Made by a program: the position numbers and the translations under genes. Below, piece by piece: positions 6,609 through 30,395 of a stretch of DNA of 64,000 bases. The DNA comes from a virus. Lineage: Duplodnaviria; Caudoviricetes. Where the stretch lies: the IMG/VR virus record IMGVR_UViG_3300020576_006930, positions 32,001-96,000 of that record; one strand, written 5' to 3'. The notes under the pieces were generated by a model. That model made no database searches. It worked only from the letters and a program-made list of their open reading frames with translations, and was not told the origin of the DNA. Position 1 is the first letter of the stretch. Every line of letters begins with the position of its first letter.

Positions 6609-6623
6609 TATTACTTAACGGTT

Positions 6624-13406: not shown

Positions 13407-13473
13407 TATCGGATTGTCAAAATAACCATTGACACTTTTCTTTTCTCCTGTATACTTATTTGTAGTTAGTGAT

Positions 13474-13547
13474 GGCAGCGTAGTTCAATAGTAGAACAAT
13501 GGTTTCATAAGCCGAAGACGGCGGGGCAGTACCGCCCGTTGCTACCA
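13474..13547 (+). tRNA. tRNA-Met/Ile2 (CAT)
   Basis: Cloverleaf, loop TTCATAA, atypical T-loop, encoded CCA. Confidence 0.8.
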
Positions 13548-13556
13548 ATTTTTAAT

Positions 13557-13634
13557 GGCGCTGTAGCCCAATTGGCAGGAGGCATCTGACTTAGGATCAG
13601 AGCAGTGAGGGTTCGACTCCCTTCGGCGCTACCA
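13557..13634 (+). tRNA. tRNA-Leu (TAG), short variable loop
   Basis: Loop CTTAGGA; CCA. Confidence 0.9.
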
Positions 13635-13648
13635 ATTTTAGTTAGAAT

Positions 13649-13725
13649 GGCATCGTAGCCCAACGGCAGGAGGCGCTTCACTCAAAACGAAGACAGTGCT
13701 GGTTCAAATCCAGTCGATGCTACCA
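13649..13725 (+). tRNA. tRNA-Leu (CAA), short variable loop
   Basis: Loop CTCAAAA; CCA. Confidence 0.9.
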
Positions 13726-13734
13726 AATTTTCAA

Positions 13735-13808
13735 GCCGGTGTAGTATAGTGATATTATAACGCATTGGTAATGCGATGACGGGAGTTTGATTCTCCCCGC
13801 TGGCTCCA
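13735..13808 (+). tRNA. tRNA-Thr (GGT)
   Basis: Loop TTGGTAA; CCA. Confidence 0.85.
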
Positions 13809-13815
13809 ATTTTAA

Positions 13816-13891
13816 GCCGCTGTGGCTCGACCGACAAGGCGCCTCATTTGTAATGAGGTTTATGCGGGTTTAATTCCTGCCAGCGGCTCCA
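13816..13891 (+). tRNA. tRNA-Thr (TGT)
   Basis: Loop TTTGTAA; CCA. Confidence 0.85.
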
Positions 13892-13895
13892 ATTT

Positions 13896-13970
13896 GCCTC
13901 TTTGGTGATAATGGCAGCATTTCTGTTTCGTACTCAGAAGGTATTAGTTCGATTCTAATAAGAGGCTCCA
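13896..13970 (+). tRNA. tRNA-Thr (CGT)
   Basis: Loop TTCGTAC; CCA. Confidence 0.85.
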
Positions 13971-13975
13971 ATTTT

Positions 13976-14049
13976 CGTTCGTTAGTTCACGGTAGAATAC
14001 CTAGTCGAAAGACTGGGAGAAGGTGGCTCTAACCCATCACGAACGACCA
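13976..14049 (+). ncRNA. tRNA-like RNA with a GAAA tetraloop in place of the anticodon loop
   Basis: Acceptor CGTTCGT/ACGAACG-A-CCA, D-arm, CCTAGTC-GAAA-GACTGGG arm, degenerate T-loop. Confidence 0.65.
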
Positions 14050-14051
14050 AC

Positions 14052-14127
14052 GTACCGTTAGGCAAATGGGAAGTCGGCAGTCTGCAAAACTGCTTTTGAG
14101 TTGGTTCGATTCCAACACGGTACTCCA
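14052..14127 (+). tRNA. tRNA-Cys (GCA)
   Basis: Loop CTGCAAA; U73; CCA. Confidence 0.9.
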
Positions 14128-15744: not shown

Positions 15745-15910
15745 TTGACAAAAACAGGAAGTATGAGATACTTATTCCTGTAAGTGAGAAATAACAATAT
15801 GAACAATCGCTGGTTTAATAATATTCGTAGAAGGAATGGCGGAGGCTGAATAAGCCTACCGATAGCGAAAGCTTTCGCCCGCCACTCCAAAAGGGTGGCG
15901 GGCTTTTTGT
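15745..15910 (+). promoter_or_regulatory. promoter + leader peptide (MNNRWFNNIRRRNGGG, 15799-15849) + terminator: candidate attenuator of a tRNA operon
   Basis: TTGACA...GAGATACT promoter; terminator GCCCGCCACTC/GGGTGGCGGGC-TTTTT. Confidence 0.7.
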
Positions 15911-15929: not shown

Positions 15930-16003
15930 ATGTAGTTCGTATAATGGTATTACCTTCCTCTCCAAAAGGAAAGACAGGGGTTCGATTCCTCTACTACATG
16001 CCA
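15930..16003 (+). tRNA. tRNA-Trp (CCA)
   Basis: Loop CTCCAAA; CCA. Confidence 0.85.
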
Positions 16004-16013
16004 ATTTTTAGAT

Positions 16014-16088
16014 GCTCTTATAGTGAAATGGACATCACGGGACCCTGCGAAGGTCTAATTCCAAGTTCGAATCTTGGTAAGAGCGCCA
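16014..16088 (+). tRNA. tRNA-Arg (GCG)
   Basis: Loop CTGCGAA; CCA. Confidence 0.9.
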
Positions 16089-16097
16089 AATTTAAAT

Positions 16098-16174
16098 GCA
16101 CCCGTGGCGCAACTGGACAGCGCAAACGGCTTCTATCCGTAAGGTTGGGGGTTCGACTCCCTCCGGGTGTACCA
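16098..16174 (+). tRNA. tRNA-Arg (TCT)
   Basis: Loop CTTCTAT; CCA. Confidence 0.9.
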
Positions 16175-16179
16175 ATTTT

Positions 16180-16265
16180 GAGTGTGTGACCGATAAAGCT
16201 TAGTGGTAGATCGGCCTTGAACTGAGGCTCGGAACACATAGGTTCAAATCCTATCGCGCTCACCA
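16180..16265 (+). tRNA. atypical tRNA, anticodon uncertain (loop CCTTGAA)
   Basis: Acceptor, T-arm and CCA are clear; D-loop and variable region are enlarged. Confidence 0.55.
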
Positions 16266-16355
16266 ATTTCAGATGAACGAAAGTTCCCTAGTCTTGTGTA
16301 TTGGGCCGGTAAAAACTTTAGATTCCGGTATCTGATAAGAATTTTGTTTTAGGAT

Positions 16356-16431
16356 TCCTCTTTAGCATAACTGGTAATGCAGCACACTGTTAATGTGCCC
16401 TATGTTGGTTCAAATCCAACGGGAGGAGCCA
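16356..16431 (+). tRNA. tRNA-Asn (GTT)
   Basis: Loop CTGTTAA; CCA. Confidence 0.9.
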
Positions 16432-16492
16432 ATTTTAATAGCATAAAAAGTAGTAATTTTTCACAGGTAGTATATACTTATACTTGTGTGCT

Positions 16493-17089
16493 ATGAATAA
16501 AATATTACTAAAAAGATATGTTGATGAAGGACTTTCTATAAATGACATTTGTAAGAAGGTAGGTAAGGGAAACACCAGTATAAGATACTGGTTAAAAAAA
16601 TATAAACTAAAAACAAATTGGAAAGGTTCATTGGAAAGGAAAGTGCCAGATAATGAATTACTAAAAATAGCAAAAAATTCAAAAAGTTTTACTGATTGTT
16701 TGTTGAGAGTGAACGGAAATGCTGGCGGAGGTTCGTATTACTTTTACAAGAAAAGATTAGAAAAATTAAATTTTGATTTTTCAATATACAAAAATTTAAA
16801 CAGAATACCACTTTTTTTGGTTAGAAGCAATCAAGAAGCTATACAAAGAAAAAGAGGGTATAGGATCAGAAGAGAAAAATTACATTTGTATTTAAAATAC
16901 AATAATGTGGAATATAAATGTAGTAAATGCGGAATCTGTGAGTGGGAAGGGAAAAATTTGTTATTACATATTCATCATAAAGATGAAAATTCACAGAATA
17001 ATAAATTGGACAATTTATGTTATCTTTGCCCAAATTGTCATAATATACATCATTATAATGATGGTAAATTGGCTAACAAACTAATCTAG
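16493..17089 (+). CDS. HNH homing endonuclease with N-terminal HTH
   Basis: LHIHHKDENSQNNKLDNLCYLCPNCH; the stop lies inside tRNA-Phe. Confidence 0.9.
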   Translation: MNKILLKRYVDEGLSINDICKKVGKGNTSIRYWLKKYKLKTNWKGSLERKVPDNELLKIAKNSKSFTDCLLRVNGNAGGGSYYFYKKRLEKLNFDFSIYKNLNRIPLFLVRSNQEAIQRKRGYRIRREKLHLYLKYNNVEYKCSKCGICEWEGKNLLLHIHHKDENSQNNKLDNLCYLCPNCHNIHHYNDGKLANKLI

Positions 17090-17146
17090 TGAAAGTGCAT
17101 CCCTGAAGAGGATGAAAGCTCCGGGCAGAACGGAGGTTAGCCACCA
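17071..17146 (+). tRNA. tRNA-Phe (GAA)
   Basis: Loop CTGAAGA; atypical T-loop; CCA. Confidence 0.75.
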
Positions 17147-17156
17147 ATTTTTAAAT

Positions 17157-17231
17157 CCCGGGATAGTGTTAATGGAAGCACGTTAGATTGAAACCCTAAC
17201 AGAGACGGTTCGAATCCGTTATCCGGGACCA
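17157..17231 (+). tRNA. tRNA-Phe (GAA), second copy
   Basis: Loop TTGAAAC, with mismatches; CCA. Confidence 0.65.
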
Positions 17232-17295
17232 ATTACGTAGTTTTTCTACTTTCTACGACCCCAGCGTAACGGCTGAATCAAATAAAGTGGAATAT

Positions 17296-17370
17296 GCACC
17301 CATAGTGAAATGAATATCACGTTGCGCTTCGAACGCAACATTTCGGGTTTGAATCCTGATGGGTGTACCA
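17296..17370 (+). tRNA. tRNA-Arg (TCG)
   Basis: Loop CTTCGAA; CCA. Confidence 0.9.
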
Positions 17371-17374
17371 ATTT

Positions 17375-17499
17375 AGTAATGTAGTTAAAAGGTAGAATAT
17401 GGTCCGTGGAGGATAATAAGTTGCAACTTAATTCATTGACTATGCCGGCGGCGGGTTTGTCTGCTAATCGGTTGTGAGGTTCAAATCCACACCATTACT
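17375..17499 (+). ncRNA. tRNA scaffold with ~55-nt insert in the anticodon arm
   Basis: AGTAATG/CATTACT acceptor, D-arm and GGTTCAAATCC T-loop; no CCA. Confidence 0.55.
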
Positions 17500-17506
17500 T
17501 TAATTT

Positions 17507-17713
17507 ATGACCGAAGACGATGAGATACTGATTGAATGTAGTTGTTGCCATGACCTGTTCGATTTGGAACAGATGCGGATGAATGAAAATGGAAAATCGG
17601 TATCTTGTGATGAGTGTCGATCTGAAAATGGTAGTGTAGCTCAGTTGGCAGAGCGTAGTCTTGATAAGGCTCGGGTCGGGGGTTCGACTCCCTCCACTAC
17701 CACCAATTTTTAA
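17507..17713 (+). CDS. small zinc-finger protein reading through tRNA-Ile
   Basis: CSCC...CDEC; the last ~27 codons are tRNA sequence. Confidence 0.5.
   Translation: MTEDDEILIECSCCHDLFDLEQMRMNENGKSVSCDECRSENGSVAQLAERSLDKARVGGSTPSTTTNF
17630..17705 (+). tRNA. tRNA-Ile (GAT)
   Basis: Loop TTGATAA; CCA. Confidence 0.9.
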
Positions 17714-17717
17714 AAAC

Positions 17718-17794
17718 GCAACGGTAGCTCAATTGGATAGAGCGTTAGCCTCCGAAGCTAAAGGTTGTGGGTTCGACTCCCGCTCGTTGCACCA
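17718..17794 (+). tRNA. tRNA-Arg (CCG)
   Basis: Loop CTCCGAA; CCA. Confidence 0.92.
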
Positions 17795-17801
17795 AAATAA
17801 A

Positions 17802-18041
17802 ATGAAATTGGAATTAATCAAGCAAAAAAACAAAATATCATCGTATAAAATTAATGGCGAACACACTGAGTATGAGGTAGAGGGTCATGTTTTTTATGTA
17901 AAAGGGTACCCAGCATTTATGATTTTGGAGAATGGCGAAATCAATCCCATTACACCTAATGGAATGGTTATCTATTATGATAATAAAAAAGAATGCGATG
18001 AATGGTTGAAAAATGAAGCAATTAACTACCGAACAATTTAA
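17802..18041 (+). CDS. hypothetical protein
   Basis: ATG just after the tRNA. Confidence 0.6.
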   Translation: MKLELIKQKNKISSYKINGEHTEYEVEGHVFYVKGYPAFMILENGEINPITPNGMVIYYDNKKECDEWLKNEAINYRTI

Positions 18042-18222
18042 AAAATACATGTCGAACCCATTGACCAATGACGAAAAAGTTCGAAGTTGGTGTTCATTGC
18101 CGGACAATCGTTACTACACAGTTTCGGTTTGGCCTGAGGCAAGAGCGGGGCAGGTAAGAGTTTCAGAAAACTTGTTTCGGGATGTAAAAGTAAAGAAGAT
18201 ATCCAAATCGGATCAACCATAA
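18013..18222 (+). CDS. hypothetical protein
   Basis: 69 aa. Confidence 0.6.
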   Translation: MKQLTTEQFKKYMSNPLTNDEKVRSWCSLPDNRYYTVSVWPEARAGQVRVSENLFRDVKVKKISKSDQP

Positions 18223-18227
18223 AAGTT

Positions 18228-19262
18228 ATGAACATTCTATTGGACAGAGACACATTCCGCAATGGGGTGTTCATGCGTGACAAAAACAAATGTGTCATTT
18301 GTGGGCAACCGGCTCAGGATGCGCATCACATTATTGAACGTAGATTATTTGACGATGGTGGTTATTATCTTGACAATGGCGCTTCATTATGTGCGACGTG
18401 TCATATTAAGGCCGAATCTACTGAGATTAGTTGCGAAGCTATCAGAGCAGGAGCTGGAATCGTGGACATTGTTTTGCCGCTTCACTTATATCGGGATAAT
18501 GTTTACGATAAGTGGGGCAACATAATCAATGTCAATGGCACGCGGCTGAAAGGCGAATTATTCGGTGATGTCAGTGTTCAGAAGATTTTGAAACAGGGTG
18601 GAGTTCTTAGCAAGTTTGTGGATTATGTAAAATATCCCCGCACTTACCATTTACCTTGGAGTGACGGTTTGACGAATGATGATCGGGTAATGACTCCGGA
18701 GGATTTAAAATTTTTAGAAGATAGTTCGGTGGTCGCTACGGAAAAAATGGATGGAGAAAATACCACCATTTATACCGATTACATTCACGCTCGTTCGGTG
18801 GATAGTCGTTCACATTGGACACAATCATATGTGCGCCAATTACAAAGTAAAATTGGACATGATATCCCAAAGGGTTGGCGGATTTGTGGTGAGAATCTTT
18901 ATGCCAAACATTCCATCAAGTATGATAAATTGGAAGATTTCTTTCTGATGTTTTCGATTTGGGATGACAAAAATCAGTGTTTGAGTTGGTTGGAAACCGT
19001 GGAATGGGCAAAGTTGTTGGGATTAAAAGTGGTAGACGTGTTCTTTGTCGGGCCGTGTTGGAAAGACACGGTACATAAGCTATATGAGGGCAATTCAAAA
19101 CATAAGCCCATTGAAGGTTATGTGGTCAGGACATTGAACGGTTTCTCTTATGGTAATTTTAGAAAATGTACTGGTAAATTTGTTAGAAAAAACCACGTCC
19201 AGACCAGTCACCACTGGCGGTTTGAGAAGATCGAAAAGAATGAGTTATCGTCCGTAGGGTGA
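18228..19262 (+). CDS. HNH domain-ATP-dependent RNA ligase fusion
   Basis: N-terminal CVIC..DAHHI...NGASLCATCH; C-terminal KYPRTYHLPWS, motif I EKMDGEN, GENLYA, EGYVVR, KFVR. Confidence 0.88.
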   Translation: MNILLDRDTFRNGVFMRDKNKCVICGQPAQDAHHIIERRLFDDGGYYLDNGASLCATCHIKAESTEISCEAIRAGAGIVDIVLPLHLYRDNVYDKWGNIINVNGTRLKGELFGDVSVQKILKQGGVLSKFVDYVKYPRTYHLPWSDGLTNDDRVMTPEDLKFLEDSSVVATEKMDGENTTIYTDYIHARSVDSRSHWTQSYVRQLQSKIGHDIPKGWRICGENLYAKHSIKYDKLEDFFLMFSIWDDKNQCLSWLETVEWAKLLGLKVVDVFFVGPCWKDTVHKLYEGNSKHKPIEGYVVRTLNGFSYGNFRKCTGKFVRKNHVQTSHHWRFEKIEKNELSSVG

Positions 19263-19380
19263 ATTTTAAATAAACTAATCGTAAAAAAGTTTCGAAAGTT
19301 GTTGACGAAAAGTTAAAATGGTATATACTTATTCTTGAGTTGAGACGGCATCGGTAAAGACAACGAATAAAAAACGGTGC

Positions 19381-19550
19381 TTGACAACAAAGAATTTCGG
19401 TGTACAATATACACCATAAGAAAATGAATATTAGTTCAAAACATCAATATAAGGATAGTGAACCAGCAGGAGGCGGTGCATAAAGCACATCCTGAAGCGT
19501 AAAGCTTTATGACCGCCATCCTCTAATACAGGGTGGCGGTTTTTTATTTT
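19381..19550 (+). promoter_or_regulatory. promoter + leader peptide (MNISSKHQYKDSEPAGGGA, 19424-19483) + terminator: second candidate attenuator
   Basis: TTGACA...TACAAT promoter; terminator ACCGCCATCCT/AGGGTGGCGGT-TTTTT. Confidence 0.7.
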
Positions 19551-19763
19551 TAAGAGTAGTAAAGTCAAGCTGGACTTAAAACGGAGTATGAGATAGCACT
19601 CAAGAAACGCTGTTCGTTGAAACCGAAAGGTAGTGAACGATAAATCCATAAAGCAGACGGCTCACGCGATTCCGTCGTTTATGGCTTCAAAAAGAAGGCG
19701 TGATTGAGTGAAAGCCCACCCGGAAGTAGGCTTGACGTTAGCGGAGAGACGCTTTTTAATTTC

Positions 19764-19849
19764 GCGAGTATGCGCCGAGCTGGCCGATGGCACCGGACTT
19801 TTAATCCGGTATATAAACACCGTGGGTTCGAATCCCACTGCTCGCACCA
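19764..19849 (+). tRNA. tRNA-Lys (TTT) with long variable region
   Basis: CCGGA-CTTTTAA-TCCGG, 12-nt variable region; CCA. Confidence 0.8.
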
Positions 19850-19902
19850 TTTTACTTTTAAGATTTTTTGTATTTTAAAAGTCATTCATGATATTTATAT
19901 GT

Positions 19903-20370
19903 ATGAAGAAATGCTATACATGCCAACAAGAAAAAGAAACGGTGGAATTTAACAAAAGTAAATGTCGTAAAGACGGGTTGAATTCTATTTGTAAAGAATG
20001 TTCTAAAAAACGGAGTAAACAATATTACAAGGAAAATACCGAATATCATAGAAAAGCGGTCTATCGAAATAAACAACAGTACGGAGAACAATTGAGGGGC
20101 TGGATATCCGATTTAAAATCGGGAGGGTGTTGTATATGTGGTGAGAAAGAGATATGTTGTTTGGATTTTCATCATATCGATTCAAAAACAAAAGATTTTG
20201 CTATTTCAAGTTTGGTATACAATCTATCCAGAAAAAAACTAGGGAATGAATTGACTAAGTGTGCAATAGTGTGCTCAAATTGTCACAGAAAAATTCACAT
20301 AGGCGTTTTAAAAAACCCTATTGATAAAAAACTAGAAAACATATCCATACCGAATTTAACAGTGAATTAA
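19903..20370 (+). CDS. HNH endonuclease
   Basis: CYTC/CKEC finger; LDFHHID...KCAIVCSNCHRKIH. Confidence 0.88.
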   Translation: MKKCYTCQQEKETVEFNKSKCRKDGLNSICKECSKKRSKQYYKENTEYHRKAVYRNKQQYGEQLRGWISDLKSGGCCICGEKEICCLDFHHIDSKTKDFAISSLVYNLSRKKLGNELTKCAIVCSNCHRKIHIGVLKNPIDKKLENISIPNLTVN

Positions 20371-20399
20371 TTTTCAAACGAATTCAAAACAATTTTAAT

Positions 20400-20476
20400 G
20401 CAGTTGAAGCCATGATGGACCGGCACCCGGCTTTTACCCGGATATGGAGTGGGTTCGATTCTCACCGACTGCACCA
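20400..20476 (+). tRNA. tRNA-Lys (TTT)
   Basis: Loop CTTTTAC; CCA. Confidence 0.85.
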
Positions 20477-20485
20477 ATTTTAAAC

Positions 20486-20562
20486 GCGCTCGATGCTACA
20501 GTGGATCGGCACCCGGCTCTTACCCGGATATGATGAGGTTTCAACTACCTCCGAGCGCACCA
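20486..20562 (+). tRNA. tRNA-Lys (CTT)
   Basis: Loop CTCTTAC; CCA. Confidence 0.75.
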
Positions 20563-20918
20563 ATTTCTGATTCCCCCATATCAACAATCACCGTTTTTCC
20601 CAACGGTTCAAATTTGTTGACCAAATCCGGATTTATTTCCCGTGGGGGAATCAATTTTAATTTAACAATTTTGCCTCAGTCCAGACGGCCTACTTCTAGT
20701 TAAGCACAGACGAAGTAATGAAGAAATGGAGTCTGGGTGCTCTGAGTGCAAATTCATTCGCCAGTTATCTAATCTGGTGCCAACAGCAATCAGGAAAATT
20801 AAAACATTCGTAGGAAGCTATGCTGACCGCAAGAGTGTTTTGGTTGGAATGGTTGGGCCGCTGTTCTGAAAACAAAATTATACGGGGCCGTTCACACCCC
20901 GTTGACAAAGTGAACAAT

Positions 20919-21005
20919 GGTAGGGTATCCAAATGGCTAAAGGACACGGTCTGTAAAACCGCCGCTCAAAAGGCTTTGTGAGTTCGAATCTCATCCCTAC
21001 CACCA
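20919..21005 (+). tRNA. tRNA-Tyr (GTA)
   Basis: Loop CTGTAAA, long variable arm; CCA. Confidence 0.9.
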
Positions 21006-21010
21006 ATTTA

Positions 21011-21065
21011 AAGATGCCAACAGCAAACAAAAATTCAATTATAATGAAAAAAAGATGGCATCTTG
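21011..21065 (+). repeat. ACAGCAA RNA module (related copies at 20776, 23193, 25053, 33767)
   Basis: AAGATGCCA-ACAGCAA...TGGCATCTT-G closing helix. Confidence 0.75.
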
Positions 21066-21103
21066 TTTTAGAACCCTCTATTTATATGGGAGAGGTCTAA
21101 TTT

Positions 21104-21529
21104 ATGAAAAAATTTAATTGTTTATATTGTAAAAAAGAAAAAACACACCAATCGTCTCAGTCTATGGGGAAATATTGTTCGGCAAAATGTCAACAAAATT
21201 TTCAAATAGAGAAAAAAATGGAAAGTGGAAATTGTTTGTATACTCCGGGAATAAGAAATTGGTGTTATAATAATTTAAAACAGGTATGTGATGTGTGTGA
21301 TACGGGATTAATATGGAATAATAAACCGCTGAGATTACAAGTCGATCACAGAAATGGAAATTCCAGAGATAACCGTAGAAATAATTTAAGAATGATTTGT
21401 CCCAATTGTCACACCCAAACCGAAAATTGGGGGATAAAAAACGCATCTCCTGAGGGAGTTGAAAAAATGGTAGTTGCGGGGAAATTAACACAAAAGAATT
21501 TTTGGTCATATAAAGTAATAGTAACCTAA
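21104..21529 (+). CDS. HNH homing endonuclease
   Basis: LQVDHRNGNSRDNRRNNLRMICPNCH; the stop lies inside tRNA-Asp. Confidence 0.9.
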   Translation: MKKFNCLYCKKEKTHQSSQSMGKYCSAKCQQNFQIEKKMESGNCLYTPGIRNWCYNNLKQVCDVCDTGLIWNNKPLRLQVDHRNGNSRDNRRNNLRMICPNCHTQTENWGIKNASPEGVEKMVVAGKLTQKNFWSYKVIVT

Positions 21530-21577
21530 CGCACTGTCTATGCGAAGTCCGGGGAGCGTAACCCCGTATGACCGCCA
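21504..21577 (+). tRNA. tRNA-Asp (GTC)
   Basis: Loop CTGTCTA; atypical T-loop; CCA. Confidence 0.75.
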
Positions 21578-21763
21578 TTTTGATCTGTTGGCTAATCCAC
21601 CTTGCTACGCATTGAGTATGGATCGTAGAGCACGCGGACGGTTTGAATGAATCCCGAACAAGTAGGCTACTAACCGAAAAGTAAGGCTGAGTGAGAAAAC
21701 CGGTGCTTGAAACTGATGATTGGCTTAGTAACCAATAAGCGTTCTGACAGATTAATTTTTTAT

Positions 21764-21837
21764 ACCCCTTTGTTGTAGTGGTAGCAAAGTTCTCTTTGAA
21801 AGAAAAAGTGGTGGTTCGATTCCATCAAGGGGTGCCA
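21764..21837 (+). tRNA. tRNA-Gln (TTG)
   Basis: Loop CTTTGAA; CCA. Confidence 0.85.
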
Positions 21838-22041
21838 ATTTAATGGGTGTACAGTAGTTCAATAAATGGGATAGACATAAAAAGTCTGGGTAGCGCCTCA
21901 GTCCAATTATGGAACCAGTATGAAATCCCCTAGTCGTTGAGAATCTGAGAACACAGAATGAGATAGACGTTCACGCTGAACGGAATATTGTGAAATCCTC
22001 TAGTAAGTGATACGCTGTAAATCAGCGGCCCCATATTTTAT

Positions 22042-22115
22042 GTTCCGGTCGATTAATGGTAGGTCACTGCCCTTTCAAGGCGGGAGCGGGAGTTCGATTC
22101 TCCCTCGGAACACCA
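22042..22115 (+). tRNA. tRNA-Glu (TTC)
   Basis: Loop CTTTCAA; CCA. Confidence 0.9.
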
Positions 22116-22123
22116 TTTTTAAT

Positions 22124-22196
22124 GCTCCTATGATGTAATGCAACATCTTCGGCCGATTACCGAAGCTTGGTGGTTCAAGTCCACCTGGGAGTACCA
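22124..22196 (+). tRNA. tRNA-Ile (GAT), C33 variant
   Basis: Loop CCGATTA; CCA. Confidence 0.7.
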
Positions 22197-22202
22197 ATTT
22201 AC

Positions 22203-22279
22203 GGCCCCATCGTCTATATGTGTTAGGACATCATGTTCTCAACATGAAAAATAGGGTTCAAATCCCAATGGGGCTACCA
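22203..22279 (+). tRNA. tRNA-Glu (CTC)
   Basis: Loop TTCTCAA; CCA. Confidence 0.85.
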
Positions 22280-22361
22280 ATTTCGAATTCCCTGAGTGAG
22301 TCCGCAATTCTATACCGTGATATTCGACGGTGAATGTGGGTTAAACACACCGGGCATTTAC

Positions 22362-22437
22362 GGCCCCGTCGTCTAGAGGACAAGGATTGCGGATTCTCAA
22401 TTCGCGGAACTCGGTTTGATCCCGAGCGGGGCTACCA
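22362..22437 (+). tRNA. tRNA-Glu (CTC), second copy
   Basis: Loop TTCTCAA; CCA. Confidence 0.8.
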
Positions 22438-22439
22438 AT

Positions 22440-22670
22440 TTACATGGGCTTTTTCCATTCCTCAGACTCTTTCAATTCTTTTATAAATTGTTCGTGACGA
22501 TTAAGCCCGACAAGATTTTCATATAATTTTAAGGCTTCAGCGGACATACAATTTACTGACGCATTTTGGATTTTCTTTTGGGTGGTGTATTTTGATGAAT
22601 TTGTAATCATAATTTTTTCAGTGATATTCCGTTTACGGGATGTAATATCAAGGTGGGAAGTATATCTCAT
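22440..22670 (-). CDS. hypothetical protein (antisense within the tRNA island)
   Basis: AT-rich 76-aa ORF filling the gap between tRNAs. Confidence 0.5.
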   Translation of the reverse strand: MRYTSHLDITSRKRNITEKIMITNSSKYTTQKKIQNASVNCMSAEALKLYENLVGLNRHEQFIKELKESEEWKKPM

Positions 22671-22848
22671 TCTTGAAAAGAAGATATGGGGTTAAACCCC
22701 ATTAGGTAATACCCTACTAATCCAATTTCCATAAGCTATGAACCAACAAATAAACAACGGCATTAGATGGTTGTAACGGGTGCGAAGTCCGACCCAATGA
22801 ACATAATTCATTGGTGTAAGCCAGACATAGTAAAGTGGAAAGATTTAT

Positions 22849-22923
22849 TCCAGAGTAGTGTCAAAGTAGCACACGCGGCTGTTAACCGTGTTAGTGTTGG
22901 TGCGAGTCCAACTTCTGGAGCCA
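22849..22923 (+). tRNA. tRNA-Asn (GTT)
   Basis: Loop CTGTTAA; CCA. Confidence 0.85.
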
Positions 22924-23192
22924 ATTTTTGTTGCGCTAACGGGCTAGAGTAAAGTAACTCAGTCGCCTTTATAAGCGAAAGATAGTAGGTTAACGCCCTA
23001 TATGACCCGCAGGTATCTCTAAGACATGAGGTCGCAACAAAACGATTTTCAACACCGATAAATAACGATGCTGTTATATTTCCGGACCAACGGTTGACCG
23101 ACAAAAACAGCATCGGTTTTGAACCTATTAGTTCAACGCATGATGAATGTGAGGATGAGAAGTTAGCTCACGATAAAATCTTCTCCACTTTT

Positions 23193-23248
23193 AAGATGCC
23201 AACAGCAACCAAATCACTTGCCTGTTAAGCAAAAAAGATGGCATCTTG
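23193..23248 (+). repeat. ACAGCAA RNA module carrying an Asn-type anticodon stem-loop
   Basis: TTGC-CTGTTAA-GCAA inside the AAGATGCCA/TGGCATCTT helix. Confidence 0.75.
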
Positions 23249-23486
23249 TTTTTATGGTCGGCGTCTGAATCTGCTGGTGAGGTTAGCTTCATAGGATGAT
23301 AATAATGACGAGTTAACCCGGCCGCCGATTTTTTGAAGGAACTGGCGGACTGAGATGTGTATAGTTGAGGTCCGATAGACAATGCCAGCCTTCAATTTTA
23401 TGGTGATATTCATTTGATTTTTTTGTTTTGGTGATGATATTTATCAGCAAATACGTCGTATTTACGATGTCAAAACAAAGGTTTAA

Positions 23487-23711
23487 ATGAAAAAATATCA
23501 AGAAATTAGTCATTATATCAAATTTAAAGCTCGTAATGGAGATGGAGAAGTGATATCGATAGTAGAGGATGTAGATAAAGCGAAATTTATTTATGATTCT
23601 TTAGAAGAAATCCCCCCGTTCGGTCCAGATAAAATTATGGTAGAAAATAATAGAATGTGGAAAGTAATTAAACAAGACGGATTAACTATTCTAGCCAAAA
23701 CTCTAAAATAA
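23487..23711 (+). CDS. hypothetical protein
   Basis: 74 aa. Confidence 0.6.
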   Translation: MKKYQEISHYIKFKARNGDGEVISIVEDVDKAKFIYDSLEEIPPFGPDKIMVENNRMWKVIKQDGLTILAKTLK

Positions 23712-23772
23712 TTTAGTAAAAAATACGGATTCAAATCGGTTTTTCCTCCCCATCGATAATACTTATTGGCAT

Positions 23773-24678
23773 ATGAAAATGGGAGTCGTAAAATGTAGTC
23801 GGTGTCGTAAAGAATTCGAAAAACCCCAATCTGAGATTAAGAGAATGGTAAAAAGAAAATGGGTAAACCATTTTTGTGGTACCAAATGTCTTTCTGAATT
23901 CGGCGTGGTGTTTCGGAAGAAACTTTCCGATGAAAGAATAAAATCGTATTATCTTTCTCCTAAGAAATGTCCAAATTGTGATTCAGTCATTCCACACGAA
24001 GACAAATCACAAAAAACATATTGTTCATCAAAATGTTTCGGTATCCATTCTCAAAAAAACGGTGGCCATTGTCATTGGTCAGATGAAGATAAAGAACGCT
24101 TACGGCAACAAGCCAAAAACAATCCCAAATTTGTTCCGGGGTGGAATAGAGGGAAACGGTATGCTCCAACAATTACATTAAAATGTAGAAATTGTGGGGG
24201 TGATTTTATACAAACAATTTCCAAAATAAATTCTAATAAAACGCAAACTTGCGGAAAAGAATGTAGAAGAAAATTACAATCTATCAATTTACTTAACCAG
24301 TACAAAAATGGGAAGAAAGTATATGGCGGAACAACCAAGTGGTTAAAATACAAAGATATAAAAGTTCAGGGCTCATATGAATATAGAACTTGTCAAATCT
24401 TAGACCGTTGGCAACAGGTCAATAAAATTAAAAAATGGGAATATACAAACGATAGATTTGAGTATATAGGAACTGACGGGAATAACCACAATTACTTGAT
24501 GGATTTCAAGATATGGAATAACGATGGTTCTTTTTATTATCTAGAAACTAAAGGATATGAAAAAGAAAATGATAGGTTGAAATGGAAATCTGTCGTGGAT
24601 GCCGGATACAAATTGGATGTGTGGTTTGATCCTGATATTAGACAGAGAGAAAAAGAATTTATGGAGGTTGTAGCATAA
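23773..24678 (+). CDS. homing endonuclease: Cys-finger repeats + TnsA-like PD-(D/E)xK domain
   Basis: Repeated CxxC...(F/Y)CxxxC; GSYE...YLMDF...YLETKG; the stop lies inside tRNA-His. Confidence 0.8.
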   Translation: MKMGVVKCSRCRKEFEKPQSEIKRMVKRKWVNHFCGTKCLSEFGVVFRKKLSDERIKSYYLSPKKCPNCDSVIPHEDKSQKTYCSSKCFGIHSQKNGGHCHWSDEDKERLRQQAKNNPKFVPGWNRGKRYAPTITLKCRNCGGDFIQTISKINSNKTQTCGKECRRKLQSINLLNQYKNGKKVYGGTTKWLKYKDIKVQGSYEYRTCQILDRWQQVNKIKKWEYTNDRFEYIGTDGNNHNYLMDFKIWNNDGSFYYLETKGYEKENDRLKWKSVVDAGYKLDVWFDPDIRQREKEFMEVVA

Positions 24679-24741
24679 CTGGTTAATGTCCTAGGTTGTG
24701 AACCTAGTTTTATGCGGATTCGAATTCCGTCAACCTCCCCA
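24663..24741 (+). tRNA. tRNA-His (GTG) with encoded G-1
   Basis: Loop TTGTGAA; G-1:C73; CCA. Confidence 0.9.
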
Positions 24742-25052
24742 ATTTCAGCGGACTCAGTCGCATAGCTACGACTGGATACAACACAACTGAGCCACGACGC
24801 GGAGATGAAGCTCGAGCTTTAATAAGTCAATGTGATCGCAGTTGAAACCGCTGTCGTATTTCCAATGGAATGAGTATCTGATTAAAAACACAAGGAGAGA
24901 GATTGTTCCGCTGCAGCGGACAGACCTCCGTGAAATCCTCCCGAAGTTTAGGAGAAAGTTCCTTTTTAGTTTACGCCAGGTTAGGGATGGATTATTCCTC
25001 ACGGAAGTCTCAATTGACAAGCGAGCGTCCAGAAACCCACTGGCTGAAATTT

Positions 25053-25166
25053 TAGATGCGGACAGCAAGCAATCGATTATGTCAAACTCTTAGTGTGGGT
25101 TCGAATCCCATGTATGGTGTAATGGTAGCACAGGAGTCCCGCAAGGGAATCAAAAAACGCATCTAG
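25053..25166 (+). ncRNA. ACAGCAA module containing a circularly permuted tRNA elbow (YrlA/Y-RNA-like)
   Basis: The T-arm GTGGG-TTCGAAT-CCCAT precedes the D-arm GTGT-AATGGTA-GCAC; both are closed by ACTCT/GGAGT. Confidence 0.7.
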
Positions 25167-25351
25167 TTTTTCGAGTAGTAATAATAGGAAGTGACCAATC
25201 GGTATCCGCCTCATGAATGTAACCCAGGACTGGTAGCCTGTCGTGCGAGCAAGTTAATCCCTCGCTGGTGAAAGGGTAGGACAAGTTGATACCGGCGTAT
25301 TATTATGAGCGGTAGTTGGGACCTGATAAGTTCACAAACCATTCGATTTAT

Positions 25352-25425
25352 GGCCCATTCGTCTATCAGCAGGACCACTCGTTTTCAGCGAGAAGAGGCC
25401 GGAGCGTCACCGGCATGGGCTACCA
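25352..25425 (+). tRNA. tRNA-Glu (TTC)
   Basis: Loop TTTTCAG; atypical T-loop; CCA. Confidence 0.75.
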
Positions 25426-25779
25426 CTTTCGGCAGTCATAGGGAGTCATGACCTTAGAACACTCATGTTGTGTTATGCTCTGAAATAAAGTCACATTAAA
25501 AATTAAGATAAATACATGTATAATCAAAATAAGTAGATGTGATGGACACGTAAGAGAGACTGCGACCATTTCGGGTATGTCTTGGGAGAGTTATCGGGTT
25601 CAATTCCCGAATAGTCCACCATACGGGCTATGGGATGGTCCTGTCGCTAGCGACAAAAGCGGGTTCGATCCCCGTCATATCCATTGATTTGACCCGGAGA
25701 ATATCCGATAAATACGACACTTGGTTGGGTGCTATTCCAGAAGCTTAAAATACCCTTCAAAAGACGGGTCACCAATTTC

Positions 25780-25854
25780 GCAGTATTGATGCTAGTGGCA
25801 ACATGCGGCTTTCCCAAAGCTGATTCGTCAGTTCGATTCTGATATACTGCTCCA
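25780..25854 (+). tRNA. tRNA-Gly (CCC)
   Basis: Loop TTCCCAA; U73; CCA. Confidence 0.88.
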
Positions 25855-25858
25855 TTTC

Positions 25859-25956
25859 GCCGGTTTGGTCTAACCACCTCTTAATCGGGGACGGACGGTT
25901 TGGAAAGACGGCCGGGTTAGCCCCGGACAACGTAGGTTCAAATCCTACAATCGGCT
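25859..25956 (+). ncRNA. tRNA scaffold with D-loop insert
   Basis: GCCGGTT/AATCGGC acceptor, canonical T-arm, ~30-nt helix within the D-loop. Confidence 0.55.
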
Positions 25957-26130
25957 CGAATTTACGGGGTTACAAGGAAAGGTTCGGTAAACGAAAACTA
26001 GGCCCATTTCAACAAACGCAAGCTCCGGAATAATGTACAACCCTTGCCTGAGATGGATTGGTGGTGAACACCATTTAAGTAGACCGTTACTGATCAGCGG
26101 TTCGATTCCGCTTATCTCCACCATTTATAA

Positions 26131-26206
26131 CGGAGTGTCGCCTAGTGGTATGGCGCTTGTTTCGGGAACAAGAATAACGGGAGTTCGATTCTCCCCACTC
26201 CGACCA
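26131..26206 (+). tRNA. tRNA-Pro (CGG)
   Basis: Loop TTCGGGA; CCA. Confidence 0.9.
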
Positions 26207-26212
26207 GTTTAT

Positions 26213-26289
26213 CGCCTGATCGTTTAAAAAACTAAGACACCGACCCTTGGGGTCGGAAATGCCAAGGTAAAGTCTGGCAAAGGCGACCA
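26213..26289 (+). tRNA. atypical/pseudo tRNA (loop CCTTGGG)
   Basis: Cloverleaf with degenerate T-loop; CCA. Confidence 0.5.
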
Positions 26290-26446
26290 TTTATGCCATC
26301 CAGGATCGGGTGCAATTCCCTTTACACAGAGTACTCTAGCGTGAATCTGTGGGTGGCCCATTTTAACGGACTTGTCTTTTGATAAGGATGTAATGTAACC
26401 AGACACCAAATCGTGGGCCTGATAATCCCGTTCCGTTTTACTATTT

Positions 26447-26878
26447 ATGAATATGGAGTACAAATCGTTTTTCAATTATCTAAAAGAAGGTGTGGAAAAA
26501 TATCTCATTTGGCAGCCGACCGGAATTTTCCGGGCGATGGTTGATTATTTAGATACTTTAACCTCATCAAACAACGAGGTCTATCGGGGAGCCTCCGATA
26601 AGGAAATTTCTATATTGAAAAATACCAAAGTTTTTAAATCCAACGGCAAAGGTAATACCCGGGATAATGCCGGGACATATGTTTCCGCAGATATCCATTT
26701 AGCCGCCGCTTTTGCGCTGAGATATTACCGGGATGGCCACGGAGGTTCGGTGCTCGTTTTAGAAAAGAGCAAATTACCTGAATTAGTCGCCCGCGATCCT
26801 GGAAATTTTACCGTGGACCATGTTCCACTGGAAGCGGTAAAACGCATCATCAATTTAAAAGACTTTACCGGTCGATGA
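26447..26878 (+). CDS. hypothetical protein, possible ADP-ribosyltransferase-like fold
   Basis: VYRG ... GTYVSADIHLAAAFA ... GGSVLVLE pattern. Confidence 0.45.
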   Translation: MNMEYKSFFNYLKEGVEKYLIWQPTGIFRAMVDYLDTLTSSNNEVYRGASDKEISILKNTKVFKSNGKGNTRDNAGTYVSADIHLAAAFALRYYRDGHGGSVLVLEKSKLPELVARDPGNFTVDHVPLEAVKRIINLKDFTGR

Positions 26879-27137
26879 AGGAAAGACAATACTGGCTGGG
26901 GTGAGATTCCCCTCATAAGGCCAATTATTGGAAAGAGAAGCACCTTCCAGGGTGTGATGGTACGACGGTACCGTAGTGAAATCCCTTCGTCAAATGTAAA
27001 AATGAGAGAGATAATAGATGGGAACCTGATGTGGTGTAATTGGCAGCACAGCCTTTAAAGGCAGGTTGAGGTTCAATTCCTCACGACTAGGCCATCTTAA
27101 TGAACATTCGTGAAATCCTCATCTAATTTTTTAGTTC

Positions 27138-27214
27138 GGGGTGGTAGCTTAATTGGTTAAAGCGGCAGCCTGTCACGTTGTAGACTGGGGGTTCGAGTCC
27201 CCTTCATCCCGCCA
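27138..27214 (+). tRNA. tRNA-Asp (GTC)
   Basis: Loop CTGTCAC; CCA. Confidence 0.9.
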
Positions 27215-27545
27215 TTTTATGATTGAGTCCGGAGCCATCGTCCGCGGTGATGGCCGGAGAGTTCCAAACTGAACACTCAATCGCCACTTTAGTTACAAAG
27301 AGAAGATGGAGCTGGTAATAATTATTGTCATTATATTACCCCTCTCCGTGAAAGATGATTCCTGTGTAGAAAGCCAGGACAGATTGTAGTTGCACTGGTA
27401 AATGGTGCAATCGATTGGTTTGACAACCAAAGCAAAGAATACCTTGCATAAAGGTCGGAAACTATAACAACACCTAACTAATGTTGTAGGAGGTTCCCGT
27501 AAAGGTGCTTGTAATATAGCCTAGCAATCCTTTGTAACTTATTTT

Positions 27546-27682
27546 GCCATGCTAGTTCAATGTAGAACCCATCTCTTAAAAAGCCGATAGTCTCCCTGAA
27601 CGGAGAAGTTAGTGGGGTGTTTGCCCTGCGATGTAATTAGGCCAGATGAACTGCTAGTGCCAAGTCTAGCGCATGGCTCCCA
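27546..27682 (+). ncRNA. tRNA scaffold with ~60-nt insert in the anticodon loop (CT-TAA-AA)
   Basis: GCCATGC/GCATGGC acceptor, D-arm, and CATCT/AGATG stem enclosing the insert. Confidence 0.65.
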
Positions 27683-27883
27683 TTTTGGACAACCCTGGCC
27701 TTTGACGCCGGGGGCTGATGAAGGACGAGTCTCTCCGATTGAATATCGCAGGTGTTAGACCACTTAGATATTCGTTTCAGTGTCCGATCTTTTTTCCAAA
27801 TTTTTTATTGATTAGTTTAAAGTATATAACTCAATTCATACTTGAACTATTACGATAATCCTAATCAATTGATTTAACAAATT

Positions 27884-28732
27884 ATGTATAAAACCAACCG
27901 TGCCTTTACGCTCATCGAACTTTTAGTCGTCATTGCCATAATAGGCATCCTGGCGGTCATGCTGCTGCCCACCTTGACCAGGAGCAAGAATACCGCTAAT
28001 GGTATAATCTGTATGAATAATGGGCGCCAACTTTCTCTGGGTTGGTTAATGTATGCACACGATAACAACGAACGAATTGTCTATGCGAGTGATGATGGTC
28101 TGGGTCCAGTTAATCCACTAAATCAATTTGCCTGGACACAGAGTCATATGGATTATGACCCAAACAACCAAGCAAACTGGGATATCACCATTGATATTAT
28201 GGTCGGCCCCCTGTGGAGTTACAATCGTAACGCTAAAATTTACAAATGTCCTGGAGATAAATCCGTCGTCTTGGTAGATGGGGTAGAAAAGCCACGTGTA
28301 CGTAGCATCTGTATGAATTTGTATATGGGAGGTTATGCTGGAACCGACGGTGGATCGTGGTATGTCCGGCAAAACTATGTTTATTTGAAAACCACCGATT
28401 TAAATCTACGCACCTCCCCCGGCCCAGCTAAAACCTTTTTGTTTTTGGATCAGCGTGAAGATACAATCAACTGGGGAAATTTTCAAGTTCATATGATTGG
28501 TTACATTAACCATAATGGTAGTATGTATGGTTTTTATCAAGATATGCCTGGAATGTATCATAATAACGCAGCCGGGATAAGTTTTGCGGATGGGCACTCG
28601 GAAATTCACAAATGGAAAGATCCCCGGACGACGCCGCCCATTCAGAAAAACATCGCCGTAATTGGATATGTGGAATCCCAATATAACAAAGATGTTGAGT
28701 GGCTACAAGAACGAGCCACTAGGCCAAAATAA
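27884..28732 (+). CDS. prepilin-type N-methylation / H-X9-DG domain protein (PVC-type pseudopilin)
   Basis: AFTLIELLVVIAIIGILAVMLLP, CMNNGRQL, YKCPGD, HNNAAGISFADGH. Confidence 0.9.
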   Translation: MYKTNRAFTLIELLVVIAIIGILAVMLLPTLTRSKNTANGIICMNNGRQLSLGWLMYAHDNNERIVYASDDGLGPVNPLNQFAWTQSHMDYDPNNQANWDITIDIMVGPLWSYNRNAKIYKCPGDKSVVLVDGVEKPRVRSICMNLYMGGYAGTDGGSWYVRQNYVYLKTTDLNLRTSPGPAKTFLFLDQREDTINWGNFQVHMIGYINHNGSMYGFYQDMPGMYHNNAAGISFADGHSEIHKWKDPRTTPPIQKNIAVIGYVESQYNKDVEWLQERATRPK

Positions 28733-28738
28733 TTTTAT

Positions 28739-28894
28739 GCTCGTGAGTAAGGAACTACCCGTTGAACTCCCAGATCGTGCCCAAGCTAAGATCTTCGAAT
28801 CTGGTGGTGGACTGCTGCTAATCCCAGTGAAGTTACCATTTTGGAGGAATGCCTCATGCACGGATTGTCAGTTCGATTCTGACTGCGAGCTCCA
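28739..28894 (+). ncRNA. tRNA acceptor/T-arm shell with ~120-nt non-tRNA interior
   Basis: GCTCGTG/TGCGAGC-T-CCA, GTCAG-TTCGATT-CTGAC. Confidence 0.6.
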
Positions 28895-29052
28895 TTTCTT
28901 TTATATTTATATAAAGTCAAGAGAATAATTTATGGAAAGTGAAATGACAGGATCATTAACAAAACCGAAGCGTGAAATACCGTGGTATGATCCAGAGTGG
29001 TATCAGGAATGGCTTCGGCAACAAAGACAAAAAAACATTTCCATCAATCAAA

Positions 29053-29130
29053 CAGAATGTAGTGTAGCTTGGCCAACACGCTAGTCTGGGGGACTAGAAA
29101 CCGGGAGTTCAAATCTCCCCATTCTGACCA
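29053..29130 (+). tRNA. tRNA-Pro (GGG)
   Basis: Loop CTGGGGG; CCA. Confidence 0.9.
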
Positions 29131-29134
29131 TTTT

Positions 29135-29347
29135 ATGAAGCAGAAAACACATAAGAAAAACCGGTTCCATCTAGTCGCTTTTTTAAAAGATATTGTCCGG
29201 CAGCCCATTGTAAAAAAAGCCTTGGGTTATCTTGTGGTCGCGTTGATCGGCTATGTTGTCAATCACATCCAGACCGATTCGACTATTAATAAGTTAAAAA
29301 CGGATAATACCGATTTAACATGGGCAGTGGACTATTTTCGTAAGTAA
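29135..29347 (+). CDS. small membrane protein
   Basis: Basic N-terminus plus one transmembrane helix. Confidence 0.6.
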   Translation: MKQKTHKKNRFHLVAFLKDIVRQPIVKKALGYLVVALIGYVVNHIQTDSTINKLKTDNTDLTWAVDYFRK

Positions 29348-29354
29348 CATTTAC

Positions 29355-29429
29355 GGACCTATGGTGAAATGAATATCACTGGGATTTCCTAAATCTCTAT
29401 TTCCGGTTTGACTCCGGATAGGTCTACCA
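29355..29429 (+). tRNA. tRNA-Arg (CCT)
   Basis: Loop TTCCTAA; CCA. Confidence 0.85.
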
Positions 29430-29480
29430 ATTTACCATTGACTTTATGTCGTGGTTCATATATACTTATTTGTTGAATAT

Positions 29481-29568
29481 GGAAGGTTGTCAGAGTGGTA
29501 ATGAGACGGTCTTGAAAATCGTAGCCAGGGTAAAACCTGCGGGGGTTCGATCCCCTCACCTTCCGCCA
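29481..29568 (+). tRNA. tRNA-Ser (TGA)
   Basis: Loop CTTGAAA, long variable arm; CCA. Confidence 0.92.
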
Positions 29569-29625
29569 ATACACGGTTCGAATATTATTTTTAATTTTTT
29601 TCGAACCCCTCTTATACTTATTGAC

Positions 29626-30129
29626 ATGAAAGAAAACATTTTAAAGTTAAGAGCGGATGGCAAATCTTACAACGAAATACGAAAAATATTGGGATGTTCA
29701 AAAGGAACGATAGCATATCATTGTGGATTTGGTCAAAAAGAAAAATTAAAAAGTAGAGTTAAAAACTATAAAAAAACTCTTCCGGGAATTTTAAAGAGAA
29801 AAAAGGATAATTTTTCTTTTTCAAATGGAAAGAGAGTTGGGAGAGGGAGACGAGTACATCTGGCATTCTCTCTTAGAGATTTTGTAAAAAAATTACAACT
29901 CAACTCTAAATGTTATTTAACCGGAAGAAAAATTGATTTATATCAACCAAAAACATATCAATGTGACCATATTATTCCTGTCAGCAAGGGGGGAAAATCT
30001 ACATTAGATAATCTGGGATTGGTGTGTAGAGACGCAAATATGTCTAAATCTGATATGACGGTTGATGAATTTTTTTCTTTATGTAAAGAAATTTTGACCA
30101 ACAATGGATTCAAGGTTGAAAAAATTTAA
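29626..30129 (+). CDS. HNH endonuclease with N-terminal HTH
   Basis: GKSYNEI..LGCSKGTIAYH; CDHIIPVSKGGKSTLDNL...ANMSK. Confidence 0.88.
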   Translation: MKENILKLRADGKSYNEIRKILGCSKGTIAYHCGFGQKEKLKSRVKNYKKTLPGILKRKKDNFSFSNGKRVGRGRRVHLAFSLRDFVKKLQLNSKCYLTGRKIDLYQPKTYQCDHIIPVSKGGKSTLDNLGLVCRDANMSKSDMTVDEFFSLCKEILTNNGFKVEKI

Positions 30130-30135
30130 TAGTTT

Positions 30136-30223
30136 GGAGGGTTGCTAGAGCGGTAATAGGATGGCTTGCTAAGCCATAGCCTGGGTAAAACCAGCACAGG
30201 TTCGATTCCTGTACCCTCCGCCA
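30136..30223 (+). tRNA. tRNA-Ser (GCT)
   Basis: Loop TTGCTAA, long variable arm; CCA. Confidence 0.92.
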
Positions 30224-30231
30224 CTTTATAA

Positions 30232-30305
30232 GGTCGCTTAGTTTATCGGCAGAATAATTCATTCACACTGAATAGAGAATGGTTCAATTCCATTAGTGAC
30301 CACCA
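30232..30305 (+). tRNA. tRNA-Val (CAC)
   Basis: Loop TTCACAC; CCA. Confidence 0.85.
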
Positions 30306-30307
30306 AT

Positions 30308-30381: not shown

Positions 30382-30395
30382 ATTTTAAAAAAGTT

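Follow-up and report, generated by a model that had tools for sequence, protein, structure and literature searches.

The closest described systems are the multivalent attenuators of enterobacteria, namely thrL (Thr and Ile) and the leaders of ilvGMEDA and ilvBN (Ile, Val, and Leu), with trpL, hisL, pheL, and leuL as their single-amino-acid kin. Leader-peptide control also extends to the translation machinery, since in E. coli the pheST attenuator with its pheM leader governs phenylalanyl-tRNA synthetase. The purpose of the tRNAs that phages carry has been debated for about fifty years, with codon compensation set against escape from tRNA-targeting defence, and, to our knowledge, the regulation of phage tRNAs is essentially unknown. 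Full-text literature searches on whether tRNA genes are controlled by leader peptides or by attenuation yielded no description of such control. According to the abstract of one study, phage tRNA islands are viewed as codon compensation or as a counter-defence against tRNA-targeting nucleases (PMC10264068); that study concerns why phages carry tRNAs and how these tRNAs escape cleavage, and regulation is not mentioned in its abstract.

Here, we analyzed a window of 64,000 nucleotides, which is part of a 139-kb contig from an uncultured huge phage (completeness estimate, 39%). The window carries over 40 tRNA genes, every one of them on the + strand, as well as a tmRNA and a GOLLD RNA. Two short elements in the window, referred to here as elements 1 and 2, each precede a block of tRNA genes, and our main subject is element 2. 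As in the thrL and ilv attenuators, a promoter-proximal short ORF with putative regulatory codons is followed by an intrinsic terminator, and more than one amino acid would be sensed; likewise, the antiterminator takes up the 5' arm of the terminator and would be masked by a ribosome finishing the leader, which in our case is a prediction. Unlike those attenuators, the phage elements would regulate tRNAs (together with an RNA ligase in the case of element 1) rather than biosynthetic enzymes, and their codon panels sample 5 to 13 amino acids, most of which are represented by one or a few codons and not by runs. Moreover, the phage product would act back directly on the decoding of the leader, and there is no evident protector hairpin like the 1:2 pairing of trp. 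The likeness to pheST and pheM is that a component of the translation apparatus would be controlled by reading the supply of charged tRNA, whereas that bacterial system regulates a synthetase in response to one amino acid and the phage elements would control tRNA genes. Like T-boxes, the phage elements would sense tRNA status through a terminator/antiterminator switch placed upstream of translation-related genes; however, a T-box binds a single uncharged tRNA without a ribosome, and the parts that it uses for this (Stem I, specifier codon, and T-box sequence) were not detected here. Large phage tRNA arrays beside tRNA repair functions are, as far as its abstract goes, a feature shared with the islands of PMC10264068, and a link to tRNA-targeting defences is plausible, as context and not as a result. 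Rfam revealed no sequence relation to the His, Thr, Trp, Leu, and Phe leader families, none of which was matched. Our reading is that the element would work like a leader-peptide attenuator but stands outside any described leader family.

Table 1. Positions of the features of elements 1 and 2 and of their tRNA operons (window numbering)
Feature	Position	Strand	Details
Element 1, paralogous to element 2	15745-15909	+	Promoter 15745-15772; 16-codon leader 15799-15849
Element 1, predicted folds	15833-15903	+	Antiterminator, 15833-15842 with 15879-15888; terminator, 15877-15903 plus T-run
Element 1 operon	15930-19262	+	tRNAs 15930-17794, HNH-like ORF, HNH-RNA ligase gene 18228-19262
Element 2, upstream promoter	19302-19329	+	Phage's own consensus type; TTGACG, 16 nt, TATACT, then TATT
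Element 2, proximal promoter	19381-19408	+	Sigma-70 type; TTGACA, 16 nt, TACAAT; 11 of 12 consensus positions
Element 2, leader ORF	19424-19483	+	19 codons; ATG 19424, TAA 19481-19483; composition as in the initial annotation
Element 2, predicted antiterminator	19465-19524	+	19465-19486 pairs with 19504-19524; fold of 19415-19525
Element 2, two small hairpins (terminated conformer)	19471-19508	+	Fold of 19415-19550
Element 2, intrinsic terminator	19511-19550	+	12-bp GC-rich stem 19511-19541, 7-nt loop, T6-A-T5; -18.6 kcal/mol
Spacer, terminator to first tRNA	19551-19763	+	About 215 nt; mildly structured, fold z -2.3
tRNA operon 2, putatively controlled by element 2	19764-30381	+	Ends before a strong terminator-like hairpin at 30486

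All the parts that the initial annotation had listed for element 2 were recovered, at most one base away from where it had placed them (Table 1). Transcription from the proximal promoter is predicted to start about 9 nt before the leader ATG, and the -10 context of the upstream promoter recurs at the tmRNA, cluster-0, and element-1 promoters. Neither window leader has a Shine-Dalgarno motif, which is no argument against translation because only 11% of the long ORFs of this phage (whole contig) have one. In fact, many of its genes begin 10-20 nt or less after a -10 box, which suggests, from sequence alone, that its mRNAs are short-leader or leaderless. Within the leader, codons 2-14 (Asn, Ile, Ser, Ser, Lys, His, Gln, Tyr, Lys, Asp, Ser, Glu, and Pro) are best read as a sensor panel, and codons 15-19 (Ala, Gly, Gly, Gly, and Ala), with the stop codon that follows, as a structural part. 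The terminator of element 2 is among the two strongest terminator-like sites within 12-31 kb, and its type, GGGTGGCGG, occurs in exactly 2 copies in the 139-kb contig, each ahead of a tRNA block. The spacer downstream of it contains no ORF and, according to a promoter scan, no usable promoter, and the operon 2 tRNAs, the first of which lies at 19764, therefore depend on readthrough. No Rfam family was found for the leader or for the spacer, whether the gathering threshold was applied or the limit relaxed to E<=5 (19300-30600). Two related phages that share a homologous leader (L066 and L224/L259, see below) have a spacer of like length at the same place, with blocks conserved between them, to which the window spacer could not be aligned convincingly. 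Both attenuator promoters also have an inverted repeat spanning the -10 box and the predicted start (19395-19416 and 15755-15782), which could be a repressor operator or a 5' hairpin of the transcript.

Two mutually exclusive structures are predicted for the element 2 RNA. As a whole (19415-19550), it folds into the terminator form (-40.4 kcal/mol, z -4.8), in which one of the two small hairpins (19471-19493) has the stop codon in its loop and is followed by the second (19494-19508). Without the 3' arm of the terminator, it folds into the antiterminator form (-30.7 kcal/mol, z -4.7), whose 5' strand corresponds to the last five codons plus the stop and whose partner strand overlaps the terminator 5' arm. 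The pairing of the Gly codons claimed at the outset reappears in the predicted fold, in which the terminator 5' arm is the partner of these codons and of the stop. Mutually exclusive terminator and antiterminator folds are predicted for element 1, too. A clear upstream protector hairpin like the trp 1:2 pairing was not predicted, and the state of an untranslated leader is therefore uncertain. The coding part does contain a weak hairpin (19434-19463), and the hairpin at 19471-19493 partly sequesters the antiterminator strand, but neither is clearly of the trp 1:2 kind. Since the Glu and Pro end of the panel adjoins the antiterminator strand, a ribosome stalled there would probably mask that strand, and the last panel codons are probably too close to it to act.

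The composition of the leader tracks that of the operon behind it. Up to 27214, operon 2 encodes tRNAs for Lys (three), Tyr, Gln(UUG), Glu, Ile, Glu (two more), Asn, His, Gly, Pro, and Asp, followed beyond this point by Pro, Arg, Ser (two), and Val (two); the tRNA genes are interspersed with ORFs that are homing-endonuclease-like or of unknown function. The Gln entry depends on a re-typing of the gene at 21764-21837, which ARAGORN typed as Ser(UGA) even though it is only 74 nt long and lacks a long variable arm. Read manually, it forms a canonical cloverleaf with a UUG anticodon, C32, U33, A37, and a 4-nt variable loop, and, judged on these features, it is most likely a tRNA-Gln(UUG) and not a tRNA-Ser. 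With this correction, all 10 amino acid types served by the tRNAs at 19.7-27.2 kb (Lys, Tyr, Gln, Glu, Ile, Asn, His, Gly, Pro, and Asp) are present in the leader, as had been claimed from the sequence. The Jaccard index between the leader and the tRNAs to 27.2 kb is then 0.83 (simulated P = 7e-5), which ranks the leader first among the 1447 short ORFs of the contig (counting ORFs of 12-60 codons that begin with ATG, on either strand of the 139 kb). If the operon is instead drawn to ~30.4 kb, the index is 0.79 (P = 0.004) and the binomial test on residue counts gives P ~0.05, and element 2 is then the statistically weakest of the set. With the boundary at the terminator-like hairpin at ~30.5 kb, the operon also includes Ser GCU and Ser UGA, which serve the AGT and TCA codons of the leader, and Arg and Val remain unsampled. 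At the codon level, the Pro CCA codon and the Gly and Ala codons of the leader are not read by the proximal operon 2 tRNAs, and the unmatched residues Ala and Gly fall in the antiterminator strand.

Element 1 is built from the same modules. Without its three terminal Gly residues, its leader contains only Asn, Arg, Trp, Phe, and Ile, and these are the amino acids served by its operon, whose eight tRNAs up to element 2 comprise Trp, Arg (four), Asn, Phe, and Ile. All 12 non-Gly residues fall within these five amino acids (simulated P ~5e-6), and this leader, too, ranks first among the 1447 short ORFs for matching its own tRNA set. Crossed pairings fail in both directions, i.e., the element 1 leader does not fit operon 2 and the reverse does not hold either. 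Since the promoter and terminator modules are common to elements 1 and 2 and only the codon panels differ, the two are paralogous, and the earlier view that they represent an independent recurrence of the design could not be upheld. The RNA ligase gene lies inside the element 1 unit, and a tRNA-repair function may therefore be co-regulated with the tRNAs. Not all tRNA blocks of this phage are gated in this way, since a first block at 13474-14127 (Leu, Leu, three Thr, Cys, and others) has neither leader nor terminator and is preceded by a plain promoter (13429-13456) located 18 nt ahead of the first tRNA.

With the HNH-RNA ligase gene of the element 1 operon as a guide, we scanned the tRNA islands of phages that carry such a gene for strong terminators shortly before tRNA arrays. 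The same architecture, in unrelated sequence, was found in five other huge phages, of which three are uncultured (the L040 record; the L066/L048 record, with a homologous copy in L224/L259; and the L046 record, with two elements) and two are Salicola phage SCTP-2 (four elements) and Ralstonia phage RsoM2USA (one element). Neither "leader" nor "attenuat" occurs in the text of the RsoM2USA genome paper. The elements were picked by eye, by their architecture, from the terminator scan, and this was not a blind genome-wide screen. Strong terminators beside tRNAs in L155-L158 (two, in the other tRNA island of the L040 phage), L062, L053, and L194 end long protein genes and are followed by a promoter; they were excluded for lacking a short ORF, and not by an amino acid test. 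Xanthomonas phage XacN1 showed no clear element under the terminator criteria used. A sequence-pattern search of IMG/VR for close homologues of the window elements returned GC-rich chance matches only, the relatives of the cupin-like ORF upstream of element 1 carry no tRNAs, and the closest metagenome relatives of the RNA ligase (L169 and L240) have no tRNAs nearby. A covariance model was not built, as no relative close enough for nucleotide covariation was found and the likeness between elements of different phages is one of analogy and not of sequence homology.

SCTP-2 offers a comparison within one genome. Its four operons serve Asp/His/Met/Ile, Lys/Phe/Trp/Val/Ser/Gly, Ser/Glu/Thr, and Leu/Pro/Tyr/Gln, and each leader is rich in the residues of its own operon. 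The promoter, 5' end, and terminator are conserved among the four elements and the codon panels differ, and the terminator motif is present in exactly 4 copies in the 440-kb genome, all 4 at tRNA blocks; the four terminators lie at ~296724, 303885, 308907, and 316339 of the SCTP-2 record. The first leader contains twelve Asn codons, and a default ARAGORN run reports no tRNA-Asn. It was this Asn-rich leader that led us to allow introns, and the same operon then proved to contain a tRNA-Asn(GUU) whose anticodon is followed by a predicted insert of 45 nt (L257:3729-3850; ~298729-298850 of the SCTP-2 record). The third leader has Arg codons, and a search for a hidden tRNA-Arg identified one in the neighbouring operon only. 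In the sole homologous leader pair at hand (L066 and L224/L259), the differences are in-frame indels and several synonymous changes only; tolerated frame-breaking changes, which the initial annotation had named as grounds for refutation, were thus not seen. The long conserved leader of this L066/L259 family fits its own operon weakly. In one related phage, a promoter lies 3' of the terminator in both elements, and attenuation there could therefore only modulate expression, and not gate it.

We next consider all 11 elements from the six phages under uniform rules, by which the leader is the longest ATG ORF that ends <=75 nt before the terminator and the operon comprises the tRNAs that precede the next terminator with -12.5 kcal/mol or better. 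Hardly any amino acid type of an operon is missing from its own leader in any of the 11. The true pairing of leaders and operons exceeded all 200,000 random re-pairings by each of three measures (fraction of residues in the set, Jaccard index, and summed z), which bears out the correlation between leader codons and downstream tRNAs that the attenuator proposal demands. Ten of the 11 leaders ranked their own operon first among the 11, and an earlier test with six elements had found the true pairing to be the best of all 720 permutations. Indeed, the fit extends to individual codons: under strict wobble rules, 153 of 171 informative codons can be read by the isoacceptors of their own operon, compared with 140.1 +/- 3.3 when same-amino-acid codons are shuffled among elements (P = 5e-5). 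Gly is the exception in this codon-level fit, which would be expected if the GGN codons serve pairing. In their own genomes, the leaders stand at or near the top among 547-1447 short ORFs. An antiterminator/terminator alternative is predicted for 11 of 11 elements, with the 5' strand inside the ORF, 6-18 nt before its end, and a ribosome at the stop codon would therefore cover that strand.

Our preferred reading, to which we assign a probability of about 0.7, is that element 2 gates a phage tRNA operon by ribosome-mediated (leader-peptide) attenuation of transcription. The attenuator interpretation put forward in the initial annotation is supported by the leader-operon statistics across six phages and by the predicted folds. 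We observe the sequence parts, two alternative folds (as predictions), the lack of another promoter, and the leader-operon match in six phages; we infer translation, stalling-dependent readthrough, feedback, and the trigger. Transcription would start from the promoter at 19381-19408, and possibly from that at 19302-19329 as well, and a ribosome would load at once on the short 5' end and translate the 19-codon leader, whose panel (codons 2-14) would offer roughly one codon per downstream tRNA species. Were all panel codons decoded fast, the ribosome would arrive at the Gly-rich end and the stop codon and cover 19465-19486, the terminator stem (19511-19541) would fold, and RNA polymerase would stop before the first tRNA. 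Were the ribosome to linger at any panel codon because the charged tRNA is scarce, 19465-19486 would be left free to pair with the terminator 5' arm, and the polymerase would read through the resulting antiterminator into the tRNA genes. The phage tRNAs thus made would speed up decoding of the leader and turn the operon off, i.e., a negative feedback with an OR gate over many tRNA species. Element 1 may act alike for the Trp/Arg/Asn/Phe/Ile block and the RNA ligase gene. As for the trigger, we can only conjecture that defence nucleases or shut-off deplete the host tRNAs, or that codon usage is mismatched.

The same parts might instead make up an ordinary short transcript or a boundary, in which case the element would yield a small RNA or a small peptide, or act as an insulator, and the tRNAs would be expressed by leaky readthrough without any codon sensing. 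The terminated product of ~125 nt would indeed be a stable, structured RNA, the promoter found after the terminator in one related phage agrees with this explanation, and small RNAs and peptides that derive from attenuators are known to have their own functions in Sinorhizobium (PMC6614838, PMC7968998). Such a transcript would, however, leave unexplained why leaders are written in the amino acids and codons of their own tRNAs in 11 elements from six phages, and between the operons of one genome, why the final codons of the ORF invariably contain the antiterminator strand, and why no promoter separates terminator and tRNAs in the window; we consider this explanation unlikely.

T-box riboswitches, too, deliver their output through alternative terminator and antiterminator folds, and the leader carries codons complementary to the anticodons of the downstream tRNAs, so that one could imagine a leader RNA that binds tRNAs by codon-anticodon pairing in the manner of a T-box, without a ribosome and with a reading frame that is incidental. 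Yet in every one of the 11 elements the matching triplets share a single frame, opened by ATG and closed by a stop whose distance from the antiterminator strand is fixed, and the homologous leader pair keeps its frame through indels. An RNA of 40-140 nt without a Stem I-like platform would, moreover, have to read up to 13 tRNA types, and no match to a T-box or other riboswitch family was obtained (gathering threshold for the window, E<=5 for 19300-30600), making such a sensor very unlikely in our judgment. A last concern is that the match reflects chance or composition, with any phage ORF being rich in the codons of phage-carried tRNAs. Operon 2 does cover more than half of amino acid usage, many residues would match by chance, and the binomial P of ~0.05 given above reflects this. 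Nevertheless, a general effect of codon usage is excluded by the within-genome contrasts, in which each window leader fails with the other's operon, while the leaders rank at or near the top of the 547-1447 short ORFs of their own genomes and 0 of 200,000 random re-pairings reach the true one. We therefore give this last explanation hardly any credence.

If ribosome-mediated attenuation is confirmed, these would be the first tRNA genes under attenuation control, with direct feedback of the product on decoding speed, and the leader would represent a natural multi-input (OR-gate) translational sensor. The question is testable, given that the architecture is present in two cultured phages, SCTP-2 and RsoM2USA. 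A wider proposition, which we offer only tentatively and hold to be possible rather than probable, is that multi-codon leader-peptide attenuators are in wide use among huge phages for sensing tRNA supply, with tRNA blocks (here also the tRNA-repair RNA ligase) induced by stalling on the codons they serve, e.g., once host anticodon nucleases or host shut-off have depleted the tRNAs in question. The tRNA island would then be an inducible, self-limiting counter-defence and not a constitutive codon supplement. Leader composition also proved useful as an annotation aid, since it pointed to one tRNA that default ARAGORN had missed (Asn in SCTP-2) and to one that it had mistyped (Gln at window position 21764).

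We also note several other features of the window. The tmRNA (6624-7026) has its own promoter of the same consensus type at ~6583-6610, and the GOLLD RNA (157 bits) is found at 8252-8719, 1.2 kb 3' of the tmRNA; both precede the tRNA island. Within the island, an ORF at 27884-28732 carries a pilin-like motif for prokaryotic N-terminal methylation. At relaxed thresholds only, weak or atypical tRNA-like genes appear at 21504-21577, 25352-25425, 27025-27094, 22941-23012, and 13976-14049, with anticodon loops for Asp GUC and Glu UUC, a UAA-loop, a UAU-loop, and an odd GAAA loop. The intron mode of ARAGORN gave long-insert tRNA candidates at 25887-26123, 27546-27680, 32395-32593, 32710-32888, and 33345-33676. 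Finally, a tRNA with a CUA anticodon, of the amber-suppressor type, is located at 32060-32135, and relatives also have suppressor-type tRNAs with CUA and UCA anticodons, which hints at stop-codon reassignment or readthrough in these phages.
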